This document shows, piece after piece, positions 37,448-44,772 of a stretch of 64,000 nucleotides of DNA (the stretch's first letter is position 1; every line of letters starts with the position of its first letter). The notes under the pieces were generated by a model. That model was not told the origin of the DNA. It did not search any database and worked only from the letters and a program-made list of their open reading frames with translations. Origin of the DNA: a virus; the IMG/VR virus record IMGVR_UViG_3300038760_000071, positions 1 to 64,000 of that record, one strand, 5' to 3'. Both the position numbers and the translations under genes were made by a program.

Positions 37448-38023
37448 TTATAAATTAAGCAATTTAGTATGTAACTGAGAATAAACAAAAGTCATAGAAG
37501 TGTTTATTTCGGCTGCGTCTCTGTAATTATACGCAATATTACCCAAAACTGTAGGAAATGCTTTAGTGTATGTAAACTGTATTCGTTTGTTTTCATACTC
37601 ATCAACACCATATATTGTCATATCAGTCTGATAGTTACTATATTCACTACTAACAAGATTATCAGCATCATACAGACCCGTTTTATCATCATGCATTAAA
37701 TCTAACCATTTATATATTACCCAATAGTTATTAAACTCGTTATCAACTGTAAAGTCGATAGTAACCGGTGGGTAAGCATCTCTAGCATGTGACGATTGAT
37801 AGAGGGTATTCCCCGCGTAAGGTATTTTCATAGCAGGTACAACTAGCTCTGGAACAACAGTACCATAAATTGAAAATTGGAATGAATCTTCAGAAACATT
37901 AAATGATGCCCGAGTATCTCTTTTCTGAACTTTACGTAATGCTAGTGGTAGCTGGAAAACCATTATAAATTTGTCTATCCGGCCCTTATTGAGTAGGGAT
38001 TGTTTATTTACATTTGTAGGCAT
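37448..38023 (-). CDS. Tail tube terminator / tail completion protein (T4 gp3-like)
   Basis: FTVDNEFNNYWVIYKWL, AFPT.LG motifs. Confidence 0.7.
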   Translation of the reverse strand: MPTNVNKQSLLNKGRIDKFIMVFQLPLALRKVQKRDTRASFNVSEDSFQFSIYGTVVPELVVPAMKIPYAGNTLYQSSHARDAYPPVTIDFTVDNEFNNYWVIYKWLDLMHDDKTGLYDADNLVSSEYSNYQTDMTIYGVDEYENKRIQFTYTKAFPTVLGNIAYNYRDAAEINTSMTFVYSQLHTKLLNL

Positions 38024-38031
38024 AATAATAT

Positions 38032-39525
38032 TTATGCTAAAGGCTCATATCCAAACATTGATAGCTCATTCATATCATCTTGAGCTTGATCAGCACCCAT
38101 ACCGAAAACTATAGGCGGTAAGCAAGAATTATTATCACCCACTATTTCATTATCTAAATATAAAGATGTTGCATCTTCAAAATATTGAATACCGAAATCC
38201 ATTTGTTCAATAGTAGCAGGTTTACCTCGCTCATCTAGTTCCACAATTTCAAAAAATCTTTCTGTTATTTCTTTCTCTAGAATGAACAGAGCGTATAGCA
38301 ATGACATCACTCTATCATCATGATGACTTCTCCTAGCCTTCCATGTACCGTTTGGCCATCGAACAAAATTCTTAAGCTCAGTTAAAGTTTCTATATCATT
38401 AATCTGAACTGCTCGTACATCATTAATAAAATATCGCATGTTTAATACACCCTGATATTTTGTATTAGTATGAGCAATCATACCTAGCATTATATTTTTC
38501 CTATGAGCCGCTTTATTACCATATGATACAATTTTCTCATATCCCATATCATTCGCTAACCTATCTACAACTTGTGCACCACAATTATTACGCTCAATTA
38601 ATGCCAACGGCATGCCGTAGTTACGGAGAACAGAATATACCTTAGTTGCAAATTCAAGAGGAGGTATTTTATTGCTAGTATAACAAGCAACCTGCCGTAT
38701 ATCTTTAATATCTGTTATATCTAATATTTGTATACATGATGAGTCGGCACCAACACCCTCCGCTGTATCAACACCAGCAACATAAACACGTGATGGGTCT
38801 GCCTCTTCCCATATCTTATAATGACCATCATCTAAAATAATTTTTGGATCTCGAGTCTTAGAAACCATCTCCTCAAATAAATCATCATCAATTGATGATT
38901 CACCTGTTGATAAAAATTCGCAATTAAATTCTTGTCTCCACGCATCATTTGATCCAATTGCCTGTCTAGTAGATTTAACCCAATCATCATCTCTATCCGG
39001 CACTTCATGCCACATAATTTTATCATGCGCCCAGCCATTTTCACCATCCACTGCACCCTTATATAATGTATGAAATAGATTATCATTACCATTTGCGGTA
39101 CTACATACAAATACCTTGGATTTCTTCGACGATGTAATTACTGGAAAAACTGACTTCCAAAACTCCTCAATTAGGTGAGTGTTATGGGAGAGAATACCGT
39201 TAGTATAATACTTATGCGTCCTCTCAACCTCAACAAAATCATAAACCTTCTCTTCACGACCAATATCAATAATATCAACAACCTCACATAGACCATCTAC
39301 AGTTTTAATTCTATGACCTATTGAATCACATGCAAGAATAACATCCCCAGCTGCATCAATAAACCCATGGTTTTTAGATACGTGTATATAATCACCGTTA
39401 TCTAAAACAACTTGAAATAGCTTCTTCTTTGAATATTCAGCAATACCCTTAAAGTCTCTCCAACCCTCATCTGTTTCTATTTCCCATTCATCATTAGGAA
39501 TGAATCTTTCTATATCTTCTCGCAT
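38032..39525 (-). CDS. terL: Terminase large subunit fragment 3: split-intein C-half (aa 1-115) plus C-terminal ATPase part and nuclease domain (382 aa)
   Basis: ..YYTNGILSHN|THLIEEFW..STANG..QEFNCEF..GVDTAEGVGADSS..HDDRVM. Confidence 0.93.
   Translation of the reverse strand: MREDIERFIPNDEWEIETDEGWRDFKGIAEYSKKKLFQVVLDNGDYIHVSKNHGFIDAAGDVILACDSIGHRIKTVDGLCEVVDIIDIGREEKVYDFVEVERTHKYYTNGILSHNTHLIEEFWKSVFPVITSSKKSKVFVCSTANGNDNLFHTLYKGAVDGENGWAHDKIMWHEVPDRDDDWVKSTRQAIGSNDAWRQEFNCEFLSTGESSIDDDLFEEMVSKTRDPKIILDDGHYKIWEEADPSRVYVAGVDTAEGVGADSSCIQILDITDIKDIRQVACYTSNKIPPLEFATKVYSVLRNYGMPLALIERNNCGAQVVDRLANDMGYEKIVSYGNKAAHRKNIMLGMIAHTNTKYQGVLNMRYFINDVRAVQINDIETLTELKNFVRWPNGTWKARRSHHDDRVMSLLYALFILEKEITERFFEIVELDERGKPATIEQMDFGIQYFEDATSLYLDNEIVGDNNSCLPPIVFGMGADQAQDDMNELSMFGYEPLA
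39181..39525 (-). other. Split intein B, C-fragment (115 aa)
   Basis: Block B-like SKNH, block F KVYD, terminal HN followed by Thr. Confidence 0.9.
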
Positions 39526-40685
39526 AAGTCTTCTTTTGTTATTATCTTAAAAGCATAATCATTCTCTCTACACCACAATCGAGCTGCTTCAAACTTCGAC
39601 TGATTCAAAGGTTGATTTACAAACTCACGTGGCTTTACCTCGTATAATACTTTATTTACCTGATCACAAAAATCGACAATGTAAACTCGTTCCTTATTAT
39701 CATATGTGTAAGGAATTCGAATTAATTCATAATCTAAATGAGGATTATTTTCATGAAACATTACCTCCCAACTACTACGATAATTATTAAGTCCAGTTAA
39801 CTCTGAATATAACTTTTTATTGGAATATCTGTTGTTTGTATTTGGTGTAAATTCTCCGGTTAAAATCTTATTCCTCATAACATCGCTCATCTTTTTATAT
39901 ATTCCCCTAGCTCTATTTTTTTTTGTGAGTTTATCTCTCTTATCTTTTGTCCACGTCTTCTTATTTGACGTAGATATCTTGCTTTTTGTTGTTTCGCTAT
40001 GATGGTATCCCCTACGAGATTTCACTCTCCGCTCTTTAACATCACCAGATTGCAAATAAGACAAATCACGATCCTTCCCAATAGTACTCAAAACATCACT
40101 AATACATCGCTTCTTACTACACGTTTTATTCAAGAAGAATGTATTCCTATTTTTAAAGCTGCAATAATCACCACATATACAGTATATTGAATCATTACAC
40201 ATACTTGCAAATTTATATTTAATATCCTCAATACCTTCTGTATGTTTAGATATATTGTGAATTAAGTCCTTATCATTTAGCAATGATGTATAGGCTGCTC
40301 GTTGAACATAGTCAGATAATCGTAGCATCGTCTCATCCGGAGGCATTGATATACCATCTTCAAAGATACCATCTTTTAATCTATCAATAAAGGATGCAAT
40401 TGACTTTCCACTAAACGACACACCACCTTTAACATAGCCACGTTTATAGCTAATAAACTTCAAGTCTGGTAGGTAGTCGACATCATTAACTATATGATAT
40501 AACTTTTGACCGAGTGGTAGCTCATCTAACGTAGGTGTATCTCTATAATACTCATTTATAAAATTATAAACCTTCTCACCATCTTCGTATTTATCATACC
40601 ATGCTCTATAATATGAGTTTTTATTAAGCTTCTTATCCTCAAAGAAATCAACTATACATGACTGCATATAACGTTTATCGATCAT
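39510..40685 (-). CDS. Free-standing putative homing endonuclease (NUMOD3-like plus TnsA-like PD-(D/E)XK nuclease)
   Basis: GYHHSETTKSKIS; YRSSWE..RIPY..YIVDF..EVKP..KFEAA; sits between the two halves of intein B. Confidence 0.75.
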   Translation of the reverse strand: MIDKRYMQSCIVDFFEDKKLNKNSYYRAWYDKYEDGEKVYNFINEYYRDTPTLDELPLGQKLYHIVNDVDYLPDLKFISYKRGYVKGGVSFSGKSIASFIDRLKDGIFEDGISMPPDETMLRLSDYVQRAAYTSLLNDKDLIHNISKHTEGIEDIKYKFASMCNDSIYCICGDYCSFKNRNTFFLNKTCSKKRCISDVLSTIGKDRDLSYLQSGDVKERRVKSRRGYHHSETTKSKISTSNKKTWTKDKRDKLTKKNRARGIYKKMSDVMRNKILTGEFTPNTNNRYSNKKLYSELTGLNNYRSSWEVMFHENNPHLDYELIRIPYTYDNKERVYIVDFCDQVNKVLYEVKPREFVNQPLNQSKFEAARLWCRENDYAFKIITKEDLCEKI

Positions 40686-40693
40686 ATATTTAT

Positions 40694-41161
40694 TTATGTC
40701 TTTTGGATAATATTCTCAATACTTCTTGTGACTATCTCCCCTGTATTTTTATTACGTAGCCTTACTGTAGTATCTTTAGACACACACTCAATGAAAGCCA
40801 TCTCATCAATCACTAAGCATTGATGACTTAATACACCGTTAGCGTAATATGTATGAGTTTTCTCAACTTCTAGCAGCTCGTATACTTTACTATCATCAGT
40901 GTAAGTGGCAATATCGGTAATTTCAATACCACCATATAATTTATTTTTAATTAAAAGATCTTTTGCATAAACGATCTCCTCGTTTTCTGCTAACAGTTTA
41001 TGTAGAGGTGTACATATTAACTCTTTATCACTAGAGAGTGTGAGTTTAATTTTTGAAGGGTTACTACCGATTATAAGCCCTTTAAAGTCTCTGAAACCGT
41101 CGTTTGTTAGTACTTGATATTTGCTATTTTTAAAGCATTTATATTTTGTTAAGTCTGCCAT
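40694..41161 (-). CDS. terL: Terminase large subunit fragment 2: IntC-A (114 aa) + Walker B extein CLVIDEMAFIE + IntN-B (30 aa)
   Basis: ..YYANGVLSHQ|CLVIDEMAFIE|CVSKDTTVRLR..; junction codons checked in the DNA. Confidence 0.9.
   Translation of the reverse strand: MADLTKYKCFKNSKYQVLTNDGFRDFKGLIIGSNPSKIKLTLSSDKELICTPLHKLLAENEEIVYAKDLLIKNKLYGGIEITDIATYTDDSKVYELLEVEKTHTYYANGVLSHQCLVIDEMAFIECVSKDTTVRLRNKNTGEIVTRSIENIIQKT
40697..40786 (-). other. Split intein B, N-fragment (30 aa)
   Basis: Block A CVSKDTTV, then stop after 30 aa. Confidence 0.85.
40820..41161 (-). other. Split intein A, C-fragment (114 aa, ends His-Gln)
   Basis: Block B CTPLH, block F KVYE, terminal HQ followed by Cys. Confidence 0.88.
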
Positions 41162-41165
41162 CTTA

Positions 41166-41990
41166 CTATTTTATTTTTGTTTCGAGATTTGTACCTCTTT
41201 TTGGGAAGCATTTAGGACAAGCGGGTCTATGACCAATAGATAAATCATGATAAAATCTAGCGTCACACTCTTGACATACCCATTTATATTTTTTATACAG
41301 TGCAACTCCGTTATACGTCTCATCCAACTTAACGTTATAATCTGTCTCAATTTTAGAGATTAATTTAACTTGCTTTGTAAAAATGGCGCGCTGCGTAATA
41401 GCCTCAGATTGCATTGGGTTATCTACACCATATTTTTCATTCAATGTCTTTCGAGCTTTATTTTTATAATCTTCAGTCTGAAAAAAGTGATCAACACCGT
41501 ATTTTAAGTTATTATGTTTAACTCGTGTTGTCTTAAGCTTAGATATATCGCTACACGTTTTATTACTCCATGTATTAATCACTTTACTTTTAAAATCCTC
41601 GCTCTGCTGGTATATCTCGCTCCCGTATTTCTCCTGGTTGGTTGCCTTACTATGTGATTGACCGGCTTTTGATTGCAACCAAGACGTTGCACCATATTTC
41701 TCTATATTAGTTAATTTAATCTCCTCAACATTATATTTATTACTACATTTACGACAACAAAACTTACCATACCCGGATTTAAAATCCCGGTATTTGAGAA
41801 TACTATTACACTGCATGCATGTTGGTGTCTCTGATATATTATGACACACATTATACGCATTACGAGCAAATGTTAACTCAGAGTCATATAGTTCATGTTG
41901 CTTTATAAATGTCACTTCATCACCGTGGAGATATTTCGGAAAAACCTTAGGTATATTTGTAAGCGTTAATAGTACACTATTCACATCCAT
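41166..41990 (-). CDS. Homing-endonuclease-type DNA-binding protein, apparently lacking its C-terminal nuclease domain
   Basis: CxxC pairs and four (E/L)KYG repeats; ends CPKCFPKRGTNLETKIK*. Start moved to ATG 41990 (TAAATA-5nt-ATG). Confidence 0.65.
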   Translation of the reverse strand: MDVNSVLLTLTNIPKVFPKYLHGDEVTFIKQHELYDSELTFARNAYNVCHNISETPTCMQCNSILKYRDFKSGYGKFCCRKCSNKYNVEEIKLTNIEKYGATSWLQSKAGQSHSKATNQEKYGSEIYQQSEDFKSKVINTWSNKTCSDISKLKTTRVKHNNLKYGVDHFFQTEDYKNKARKTLNEKYGVDNPMQSEAITQRAIFTKQVKLISKIETDYNVKLDETYNGVALYKKYKWVCQECDARFYHDLSIGHRPACPKCFPKRGTNLETKIK

Positions 41991-42042
41991 AATAGTATTT
42001 ATTACCCAATTGGGTAAAGCCACCGGTAAAGGTATTATATTT

Positions 42043-43737
42043 TTAATTGTCCAGGAATATAGGAAGTAACTCCCCACCTTCAAATTCAGCTGCTAACTCC
42101 TCCATGGAGCAATCAAATGTTAACCCAGTTTCTTTATCTTTCAACGTTATTATTGTCTCCCCGTCGACACAGTTGACGGATTGGCCACGGGCTGCTGACC
42201 CGGTCGTAGTAGTAATACCTATACGAGAGCCATTCTCAAGGGTCATGGACGTTTTGGCATATTCTTTAACAGGCGGCTTAAGCCAGTTAGGTAGTTCCTC
42301 ATATGCCATCCGAACTCTTTGAAATATTTCAATCGCAGTAGCTTCTTTGTTAGCTACTAGCAATATTCGCTGATCTGCATTAAAGCATGCTTGCCAGAGG
42401 ATATAAATTGTCATCATTGTCGAGTTGTGAGTAGGTATATACTGATTACCTGCGAGAAATTGCGAATCTTCACTATCAACAGTTATACACCTAACAGGAA
42501 CCGATTCAACAAGCTCTATATTCTTTATAAAGTGATACTGCCCCCTTATTTTAAAGTTATGCTTCTTCTCTTGATGCTTTATTCTTTTCTGCTTAAACGA
42601 TAATAGAGCTACATCTTCAATTGGTTTAAATGTTATAGATGAGCATGGCTTACATTCCACACCATTAAGTGTCGGTATATAGTCTTTTAATGTAACCTTA
42701 TACCCTAGACTTTCAGTTAACTGCTTTACCTGTCTAGTGAGATTCTTATTTGTGTTATAAAACTGACATGTACCTGCTTTATTTATATAGCCATCACTAT
42801 CAACTAAACCTTGCAGTAACTGTAATCGTTGCTCTCTACTCGCTAACATATAATCAACGGGTATATGTTTATTATTGAGTAAGTTATTATGTCTTAATAA
42901 CGAACTAAGACTCTTTGTTTGTATATCAGACTCAACAGTAGGGCGAATAAAATAATTTTTCGAATTGTAGTTTTTAATAATAAGCTTATCAAATTGCTCT
43001 ATCTTATCAAATATTTTAATCTGTTCGTCTATATCTCTATGACCAACTGTTATTGTACCGGTAGCAGATGTACCATCACCTAACCACAAGCCTAGGACAT
43101 AGGGATGTATAGGTAATTCTTTCTCTATACCCCCAACACCATTAATACATGTTGGTATTCTGTGATTAGGCTCAGGTCTCTTCTTACCACTATATAGTGT
43201 GTCTAAAATATCTCTTGTTGTCTTAACTGACCCACTACACTCCTTTCTACGATCACCCCTCGTCTGAGTAAACCATAAATGATCACCATCTGCAACTATC
43301 TCCTCCCCGTTATCAAATGTTACTTTATAACAGTCACGATCATATAATACATCATGCGCTTTTAAAACACTACACTGATCACCCTTATTATCGTATATAA
43401 CATCACCAGATTTAATAGACCCCATATCCATCCACCCGGTTGGTGTTGGTATTGGTGTATCTAATGCTAGTGCCTTACCTATCTGTCTACTTGCTAGCTG
43501 TATAAAGAATCGATTATCTCTCATCTTACGGATGGCTCGCTTTTGAGCAGGATATAGCTTAATAGTCTCACGCCCACGATCAAGATTAATAATATAGAAA
43601 TAATTTTCAGCAAAATAGAGTATATTCTGACTCGCTTTCTTAAGCGCGTTCACTTGCGATGTAGTATATTCACCTTTCCAGTTAACATTTGGTAGGTTTT
43701 TGTTACCCATGTAGAACATATTACTTTGCTGAGCCAT
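42043..43737 (-). CDS. terL: Terminase large subunit fragment 1: N-terminal ATPase with cis intein in Walker A and C-terminal IntN-A
   Basis: YFAENY..LYPAQ..SRQIGK|intein|STMM..LPNWL..ENGS..AARGQSVN|CVDGET. Confidence 0.95.
   Translation of the reverse strand: MAQQSNMFYMGNKNLPNVNWKGEYTTSQVNALKKASQNILYFAENYFYIINLDRGRETIKLYPAQKRAIRKMRDNRFFIQLASRQIGKALALDTPIPTPTGWMDMGSIKSGDVIYDNKGDQCSVLKAHDVLYDRDCYKVTFDNGEEIVADGDHLWFTQTRGDRRKECSGSVKTTRDILDTLYSGKKRPEPNHRIPTCINGVGGIEKELPIHPYVLGLWLGDGTSATGTITVGHRDIDEQIKIFDKIEQFDKLIIKNYNSKNYFIRPTVESDIQTKSLSSLLRHNNLLNNKHIPVDYMLASREQRLQLLQGLVDSDGYINKAGTCQFYNTNKNLTRQVKQLTESLGYKVTLKDYIPTLNGVECKPCSSITFKPIEDVALLSFKQKRIKHQEKKHNFKIRGQYHFIKNIELVESVPVRCITVDSEDSQFLAGNQYIPTHNSTMMTIYILWQACFNADQRILLVANKEATAIEIFQRVRMAYEELPNWLKPPVKEYAKTSMTLENGSRIGITTTTGSAARGQSVNCVDGETIITLKDKETGLTFDCSMEELAAEFEGGELLPIFLDN
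42046..42171 (-). other. Split intein A, N-fragment (42 aa)
   Basis: Block A CVDGETII, then stop after 42 aa. Confidence 0.88.
42424..43473 (-). mobile_element. Class 3 intein (350 aa) with LAGLIDADG homing endonuclease
   Basis: Starts ALALDTPI (Ala1); WCT triplet (DHLW, VRCITV, PTHN); LGLWLGDG and LQGLVDSDG motifs; +1 Ser. Confidence 0.93.
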
Positions 43738-43743
43738 TGAAAA

Positions 43744-43765
43744 TATTTATACCTAGACATAAATA
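43744..43765. promoter_or_regulatory. Back-to-back T4-type late promoter boxes for terL and the divergent gene
   Basis: TATAAATA on the minus strand 6 nt before the terL ATG; TAAATA on the plus strand 5 nt before ATG 43771. Confidence 0.7.
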
Positions 43766-43770
43766 AATAT

Positions 43771-44772
43771 ATGTCTACAAAAGATTTAATGAATTTAGGT
43801 CAGGTATACGGTACAATATTTAACGACTTTAAAAAAACTATTGTCAAAGAAAGTACCGTGCCTAAAGGTGAAATTGGAAACGCGGATCTCGAGCAGAAAG
43901 GTGGTCCTGAAGAGACTGCCGGTTATAGCAGCGATAGAGTTGATATAGAAGATGAAGATCAAAAAAGTAATGATTATAACATTAAAGGTCTTTCATACGG
44001 TAAGGGTAATAATCCAGGCAATACACAAAGCCCTCAACCAACTACAGGTGATGCTGCTCTATTAGGTATTGTAGGTGACGGAGACGAGGATGAGGAAGAT
44101 ACTAAAAATGATGAATATCCATATGAATGTGACTGTGGTGAAACGTGGAAGACAAAGGACGCTGCATCGCAATGTAGTACTTGCCAGGGGCACAGTAATA
44201 TACACGATGAGGATGAAGAAATTTTACATGAAACAGAGAAAATTGCGAGGAATGGACTAAATAATTTTATGAAGCGAAAATCAGTCTTTGATAAACTTTA
44301 CGATAAGGTCATGGTTAGTGAAAACTTTGGTGAATTAGAACCCAGTGATCTTGACTCCCTCGGGTTAGATGACGCTGTACCAGATAGTGAACTAGGTGAT
44401 GAAGGTGAAGATGGTGATGAAATCACCGTTACCCTTGATCGTTCAACAGCCCAAGCTTTATGTGATGTATTGCAAGCAGCTATCGGGCATAGTGAAGATG
44501 GTGACGAAGATTTTGGTGCCGGTGATAGTGATGATGGGTTTGATGGGTTCGATGGTGAAGAGGATGAAGAGGGCGCACCAACCGCACTAAACACATCTTA
44601 TAATGATGGAAAGTCCAATAAAGTTGGATCACTTAAAGCAAAAGGTGGGGCGACATTTAAAGGTACTAACATAAAGGTAGATACAGGCTCCACCCACTCC
44701 GGCAGCTATAATGATGGTAAAAATAACAAGGTTGGTAACCTCAAAACCAATCAATCAGCTTTCGAGCAGTAA
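43771..44772 (+). CDS. Acidic, low-complexity late protein (possible head core/scaffold)
   Basis: D/E-rich; CDC..CSTC motif; duplicated SYNDGK.NKVG.LK at the C-terminus. Confidence 0.65.
   Translation: MSTKDLMNLGQVYGTIFNDFKKTIVKESTVPKGEIGNADLEQKGGPEETAGYSSDRVDIEDEDQKSNDYNIKGLSYGKGNNPGNTQSPQPTTGDAALLGIVGDGDEDEEDTKNDEYPYECDCGETWKTKDAASQCSTCQGHSNIHDEDEEILHETEKIARNGLNNFMKRKSVFDKLYDKVMVSENFGELEPSDLDSLGLDDAVPDSELGDEGEDGDEITVTLDRSTAQALCDVLQAAIGHSEDGDEDFGAGDSDDGFDGFDGEEDEEGAPTALNTSYNDGKSNKVGSLKAKGGATFKGTNIKVDTGSTHSGSYNDGKNNKVGNLKTNQSAFEQ

Follow-up and report, generated by a model that had tools for sequence, protein, structure and literature searches.

Organisation of the terminase locus

The stretch of DNA analysed in the present study, referred to below as the window, comprises 64,000 nt (positions 1 to 64,000) of the IMG/VR record IMGVR_UViG_3300038760_000071, the full length of which is 80 kb. 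The source of the window is a T4-like marine phage; the sequencing runs containing this stretch are seawater and marine metagenomes (DNA), with no RNA runs listed. A megablast search of the locus against deposited phages gave no match, and the closest deposited large terminase subunit (TerL) is 34% identical to the TerL of the window. The TerL locus extends from position 43737 to position 38032 on the minus strand and consists of five consecutive ORFs, which encode three TerL-containing proteins and two free-standing endonuclease-like proteins.

The first gene (42043..43737, minus strand, 564 aa) encodes fragment 1, the N-terminal region of a large terminase of the T4 gp17 type. Its first extein (aa 1–88, 43737–43474) carries the Walker A motif SRQIGK, directly followed by a contiguous 350-aa LAGLIDADG intein (43473–42424); the second extein (aa 439–522, 42423–42172) ends with ARGQSVN and is followed by the Cys-initiated 42-aa N-terminal portion of a split intein, IntN-A (42171–42046), and a stop codon. 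The sequence TATAAATA lies 6 nt upstream of the ATG of fragment 1; the counts in the promoter scan equal those of shuffles. In the 350-aa intein (42424–43473, minus strand) the first residue is Ala, not Cys or Ser, block B contains H-L-W, block F contains Cys (VRCITV), and the end is IPTHN|S, at the classic P-loop site. The Trp-Cys-Thr combination is the signature of class 3 inteins, combined here with a LAGLIDADG endonuclease.

The third of the five ORFs, the middle gene (40694..41161, minus strand), encodes a protein of 155 aa with three parts. The C-terminal part of intein A, IntC-A (114 aa, residues 1–114, 40820..41161), starts with MADL, has the block B sequence CTPLHK and ends with SHQ; the extein CLVIDEMAFIE (residues 115–125, 40787..40819) contains Walker B, the catalytic Glu and five further residues; and IntN-B (30 aa, residues 126–155, 40694..40786 including the stop codon) begins with Cys1. 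The initial annotation had taken the 11-mer at 40819–40787 to be the sole extein of this ORF, and its coordinates proved to be exact, with IntC-A and IntN-B on either side. The last ORF (38032..39525, minus strand) encodes fragment 3 (497 aa), in which IntC-B (115 aa, 39525–39181, ending with SHN) forms the N-terminal part and is followed by the extein THLIEEFWKSV... (39180–38035), including the RNaseH-like nuclease domain.

The remaining two ORFs are located between the intein halves. The gene between IntN-B and IntC-B (39510..40685, minus strand) encodes a free-standing homing endonuclease of 391 aa with a TnsA-like PD-(D/E)XK nuclease at the C-terminus, and this position is kept in the related loci L006, L007 and L013, which are described below. 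The gene between IntN-A and IntC-A (41166..42083, minus strand) encodes a free-standing homing-endonuclease-like protein of 305 aa with a Zn-ribbon and a Pfam DUF7487 domain. Since it covers only positions 45–259 of a 536-position homing-endonuclease PHROG profile, this protein is probably a remnant that has lost its nuclease domain. No nuclease domain is recognisable in this ORF; its equivalent in L006 is a GIY-YIG-type gene, and L007 and L013 have nothing there. The differing or absent genes at the position of 41166–42083 in the relatives suggest endonuclease turnover at a fixed split.

Reconstructed TerL and the identity of the 11-residue extein

The extein parts, joined by script, compose a TerL of 565 aa (172 + 11 + 382). 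Acidovorax phage ACP17 has an uninterrupted TerL, with which the joined protein is colinear over the full length (37% identity); all three junctions are gap-free in the alignment. Searches found Pfam Terminase_6N and 6C in the TerL fragments, with the Terminase_6C nuclease domain in fragment 3; once the inteins are removed, the protein is colinear and has Walker A, Walker B including the catalytic Glu and a C-terminal RNaseH-like nuclease, as do large terminases of the T4 gp17 type.

The stretch MIYIDECAFIP of T4 gp17 is one which we take, as established, to be the Walker B strand plus the catalytic Glu. In the alignments, CLVIDEMAFIE is placed opposite IVYMDEFAHIE of the ACP17 TerL, which in turn is placed opposite MIYIDECAFIP of T4 gp17 (PDB code 3ezk). 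The earlier suggestion that the 11-mer holds the DE pair of Walker B was confirmed by this route, and the TerL content of the middle protein amounts to 11 of 155 residues, which are the Walker B centre.

Intein class and catalytic residues

IntC-A is recognised by the Pfam family Intein_splicing (PF14890), and its top PDB match in a phmmer search is 6dsl_B (Cat IntC; E = 7e-5), with further matches to gp41-1 and VidaL. The AlphaFold 2 model of the middle protein is moderately confident (pLDDT 63; below 50 for residues 100–130), and a Foldseek search with this model also gave 6dsl_B as the best match (TMt 0.67), with an identity of about 24% in that alignment. Both inteins are split near the N-terminus, intein A into 42 + 114 aa and intein B into 30 + 115 aa, and the parts are separated by stop codons and have separate ATG starts. 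Taking an IntN of about 25–40 aa, an IntC of at least 100 aa and separate genes as the marks of atypical split inteins, we assign inteins A and B, as judged from sequence, to this class with a short IntN and a long IntC.

The residues of intein A are Cys1, the block B sequence CTPLHK, a terminal Gln and, as the +1 nucleophile, the Cys of the 11-mer; those of intein B are Cys1, the block B sequence SKNH, a terminal Asn and +1 Thr. Both inteins therefore have Cys or Ser at position 1, T/SxxH, a C-terminal Asn or Gln and Cys, Ser or Thr at +1. The terminal Gln is common to most members of family A, which end with SHQ, NKQ, SRQ or SKQ. Among the family A IntCs of loci L017–L059, most end with Gln and many have no penultimate His (NKQ, NRQ, SRQ, SKQ, SEQ, SQQ, TKN); such a block G is unusual for a presumably active intein family.

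Conservation of the middle gene in related loci

A search of 5.8 billion proteins revealed mini-genes of the same architecture at 79%, 52% and 50% identity (P0002, P0006 and P0009, respectively). Together with the loci found in viral contigs, a mini-gene of 155–162 aa is present in P0002, P0006/L013, P0009, L006 and L007, at 50–80% identity. The first four residues, M1-A2-D3-L4, are invariant in all 11 homologues, which points to a conserved independent translation start of the mini-gene.

Intein A was present in 79 loci of the scanned viral contigs, and these loci form three groups. Most of them are two-piece, with IntC-A plus about 390–417 aa of TerL; the 11-aa mini-gene occurs in L006, L007 and L013; in L008 and L014 the middle extein is roughly 95 aa long and ends in a different IntN at a QEF|C site. 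In L006 (366–6246) and L007 (1–4250), TerL is spread over four genes and interrupted by three split inteins, one each at sites A, B and C (QEF|C). This third site, QEF|C with +1 CEFL, may be the AceL-TerL site. In L007 and L013 the gap between fragment 1 and the mini-gene is only about 8–60 nt long, including the stop codon, and contains no endonuclease gene; in L007, two of the three gaps have no endonuclease gene.

The position of the endonuclease ORFs, exactly between the intein halves, brings to mind self-splicing introns. If these ORFs resided in such introns, RNA splicing would restore contiguous inteins and the middle gene would never yield a separate protein; there is a precedent in the TerL of Campylobacter phage IBB_35, which was read as an intein plus an intron, the latter annotated by the authors at an analogous place (PMC3322345). 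A search with Rfam families, group I and II introns included, gave no match in 37900–43900 even at E ≤ 1. The endonuclease-free gaps of L007 and L013, the invariant MADL start and the tails of the IntNs, which beyond the conserved part are lineage-specific and terminate in stop codons, are also at odds with RNA splicing, and we consider this explanation extremely unlikely.

All three parts of the middle gene are under purifying selection (dN/dS about 0.04–0.19). Pairwise dN/dS values for the window versus L006 and L007 are 0.13–0.17 for IntC-A and 0.16–0.19 for IntN-B; the value for the 11-aa extein is 0.04 versus L006, and versus L007 dS is not computable over 11 codons. The recurrence of the layout in independent assemblies and divergent relatives puts it far beyond chance. 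It is scarcely credible, in the light of these values, that the fractured TerL is decaying or non-functional, or that the contig belongs to a defective phage or satellite in which the mini-gene is a relic. The truncated appearance of the ORF between IntN-A and IntC-A would fit such decay, as would the estimated completeness of the record of only 38%; set against them are dN/dS values of 0.1–0.2 over all parts, the intact state of all catalytic intein residues and TerL motifs, the same layout in many independent assemblies, and the presence of a single copy of the TerL nuclease domain in the 80-kb record, given its 38% completeness.

More distant relatives of the mini-gene were found with an exhaustive phmmer search of 1.84 billion representatives. 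In these lineages the exteins of the mini-genes are 6–8 aa long: P0067 has the structure IntC-CVFIDE-IntN, P0159 the structure IntC-CIFIDE-IntN and P0167 the structure IntC-CSMVYIDE-IntN. The same end is found on longer fragments in P0061, P0077, P0079 and P0124, and in P0113 the IntN is fused in frame to an endonuclease. A separate case is P0068 (375 aa, metagenomic): its contiguous site-A intein ends with ...SHN, and the very next residues, CITGDNTV..., already open another IntN, as though the extein had zero length or two inteins stood back to back, with Walker B absent between them.

Evolutionary origin of the split sites

The region search with IntC-B as the query gave two informative relatives, P0016 and P0014. 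In P0016, a single ORF of 844 aa, mini-inteins A and B are both contiguous and have CLIIDEMSFVE between them; in P0014, intein A is split, and the 11-mer after it leads into a contiguous intein B, further extein and finally IntN-C. Considered together with the window, they indicate that all combinations exist: neither intein split, only A split, and both split. The 11-residue distance between inteins A and B is older than the splits, which coincide with free-standing endonuclease genes about 30–42 residues into the intein; the fractured locus probably originated by insertion of homing endonuclease genes into two mini-inteins that were already 11 residues apart. At site B, the residue is P, S, T, N or K in alleles free of the intein, and the +1 residue is T or S where intein B is present.

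Relationship between inteins A and B

IntC-A and IntC-B are 31–32% identical, and IntN-A and IntN-B share 9 of 30 residues (30%). A maximum-likelihood phylogeny of 65 IntC sequences, of which only the deep split was used since the alignment has few columns, groups the B-site IntCs with the P-loop-site IntCs (SH-aLRT 96), apart from the sequences of the A, C and DE|C sites. Inteins A and B can accordingly be described, from their sequences, as separate, anciently diverged lineages.

The two pairs differ in charge as well. IntN-A has a net charge of −9 and the first 40 aa of IntC-A one of +5, and for intein B the signs are reversed, with +3 for IntN-B and −11 for IntC-B; both non-cognate pairs are therefore like-charged. 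This reversed charge complementarity recurs in L006 and L007, and in L013 the first 40 aa of IntC-A have a net charge of −1; IntN-B has a net charge of +1 to +4 in L013/P0006 and P0009. An interpretation of the charge pattern as an adaptation to co-residence was considered and rejected, because IntN-A is acidic throughout family A, also where intein B is absent, which makes the pattern an inherited lineage trait. Basic IntN-B was seen only in split forms, the two contiguous forms having net charges of 0 and −1 (a small sample).

At the same time, the block A pattern and the motif T-x-[KR]-[DN]-K-x-TG are common to IntN-A and IntN-B, and across lineages IntN-A is 23–40% identical to IntN-B or to the DE|C-site IntN (the mis-registered row for L013 IntN-B was disregarded). 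Cross-reaction of the short IntNs of engineered atypical split inteins has been reported at 40–50% identity (PMC3443213), and the IntNs of GOS-TerL and AceL-TerL are interchangeable, GOS-TerL accepting the AceL-TerL IntN (PMC11766414). Since an identity of 23–40% is just below this cross-reacting range, strict orthogonality is beyond proof from sequence. Purifying selection, wide conservation, three co-resident split inteins in the relatives and like-charged non-cognate pairs nevertheless favour orthogonal A/B pairs, as far as such features can predict them, rather than alternative splicing.

Tandem protein trans-splicing as the proposed mechanism

Very probably, this TerL is assembled by natural tandem protein trans-splicing, in which the 155-aa protein serves as the middle fragment. 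The three fragments would be translated separately, probably from one late transcript; there are no terminator-like sites on the minus strand inside the locus, and the counts in the terminator scan equal those of shuffles. IntN-A at the end of fragment 1 would pair with IntC-A of the middle protein, IntN-B of the middle protein would pair with IntC-B at the start of fragment 3, and the P-loop intein would remove itself by cis-splicing. Two trans reactions and one cis reaction would in this way produce a single 565-aa TerL with an intact ATPase centre. Functional orthogonality of A and B is to be expected in such a system, helped by the reversed charge complementarity. Gln cyclises more slowly than Asn. 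As intein B ends with Asn and intein A with the slower Gln, intein B may splice before intein A, and this order would take IntN-B off the middle protein before any cis cross-reaction.

The closest parallel is an engineered one. When three segments are ligated by means of two orthogonal split inteins, the central fragment is built as IntC(1)-segment-IntN(2) (PMC12707363), as is the middle protein, and two orthogonal pairs are likewise required. The system of the window differs in being natural, phage-encoded and part of an essential enzyme, in having a middle segment of 11 aa (6–8 aa in some relatives) and in using two atypical split inteins.

The initial annotation had instead compared the layout to SICLOPPS. 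The gene order IntC-peptide-IntN within one polypeptide is indeed that of SICLOPPS and this part of the comparison holds, but SICLOPPS uses the two halves of one intein and requires them to be cognate (PMC11656719), and the halves in the middle protein are non-cognate: they are 30–32% identical to their counterparts, belong to different clades and have their partners in the flanking genes. Because they come from two different intein lineages, the true analogue is the middle fragment of tandem trans-splicing, and cyclisation of the 11-mer would need a cross-reaction.

Such a reaction would have two routes. IntN-B could fold back on IntC-A within the middle protein, giving cyclo-CLVIDEMAFIE or concatemers, and IntN-A could react with IntC-B, giving a Walker-B-less TerL with the junction SVN|THL; the by-products might then modulate packaging. 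These cross-products are logically consistent with the layout, whose order, IntC-peptide-IntN, is in formal terms the SICLOPPS one (PMC11656719). With a tether of 11 aa the local concentration would be high, the IntNs share block A and the turn motif at 30% identity, and cross-reaction is documented for atypical split inteins with short IntNs (PMC3443213), including GOS-TerL/AceL-TerL (PMC11766414). The separate and anciently diverged lineages of A and B and the like charges of both non-cognate pairs argue against it. Products that are wasteful or dominant-negative should be counter-selected in an essential protein such as TerL; moreover, the layout is kept under purifying selection across relatives of 50% identity and is kept with three co-resident split inteins, which would be hard to sustain without orthogonality, and the cyclic peptide has no known target or function. 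A meaningful A/B cross-reaction thus appears very unlikely, and cyclisation or gating of packaging by by-products found no support in the analysis.

We regard as very unlikely the specific version of incomplete orthogonality in which part of the middle protein self-cyclises to a Walker B cyclopeptide, or fragments 1 and 3 join to an ATPase-dead TerL, tuning or timing packaging. Fragment stoichiometry, or the slowness of intein A with its terminal Gln, would then decide the ratio of products; if true, this would be a natural case of alternative protein splicing. With orthogonal tandem trans-splicing as the preferred reading, the locus makes natural orthogonality versus alternative protein splicing directly testable.

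Comparison with other fractured terminase genes

The locus resembles the fractured genes described by Dassa et al. in 2009 (PMC2677866), phage housekeeping genes whose parts each form an in-frame fusion with an intein half, IntN or IntC, and enclose a free-standing homing endonuclease gene of the same strand; its IntCs are also unusually long, like that of the GOS terminase locus (122 aa; PMC2677866). Each described locus has one split intein plus an endonuclease gene and is split in two, whereas two split inteins and three genes are present in the window, and three and four, respectively, in each of L006 and L007. The split inteins of the window are, in addition, 11 residues apart, which leaves a mini-gene with Walker B as the only host-protein content, and the endonuclease gene may be absent, as in the gap between fragment 1 and the mini-gene of L007 and L013.

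With GOS-TerL, AceL-TerL and the consensus Cat intein (PDB code 6dsl) the window inteins share a short IntN (25–37 aa), a long IntC (104–122 aa) and phage TerL as the host protein; they differ in that the identity to Cat IntC is only about 24%, that the sites flank Walker B and that IntC-A ends with Gln, not Asn. The clustering of TerL inteins at ATPase motifs, Walker B included, is known from mycobacteriophages (PMC5050341).

Similar to the window in part are Campylobacter phages IBB_35 and CP21 (loci L001 and L002), where the ORF at L001:4980–6371 consists of an IntC, CNIIVVDE and the start of the next intein. Unlike in the window, the second intein occupies a DE|C site, and an in-frame fusion joins its N-part to an HNH/MobE-like endonuclease. 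As to the whole loci, L001:2538–7784 (IBB_35) and L002 (CP21), TerL is treated in the deposited annotation as an intein plus an intron; the ORFs themselves can be read as a P-loop mini-intein, then a split intein with a GIY-YIG gene, the ORF with the IntC-CNIIVVDE-intein/HNH fusion and a C-terminal fragment in which no IntC is obvious, although the sequences may contain errors.

In the literature searched there is no account of a natural protein that two or three split inteins assemble out of three or four pieces translated separately, and none of a gene in which a catalytic motif of 6–11 residues is all the host-protein content; tandem trans-splicing appears there only as an engineered method. 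What is new with respect to known systems is the presence of two or three split inteins in one gene and of a mini-gene with only 6–11 host residues; new as well is that the co-resident atypical pairs, if the tandem reading is correct, must be naturally orthogonal. The locus shows the extent to which an essential gene can be fragmented at its ATPase motifs by intein and homing-endonuclease invasion. Such phages would supply pairs, and even triplets, of atypical short-IntN split inteins whose compatibility is forced within one cell and 11 residues; these are candidate tools for one-pot multi-fragment ligation and for the insertion of short synthetic peptides into proteins.

Long IntC fragments similar to IntC-B were also found at the head of fragments of DnaB-type helicases and Clp/AAA+ ATPases (P0021, P0022, P0025, P0028 and P0032), and the atypical split-intein family therefore extends beyond TerL.
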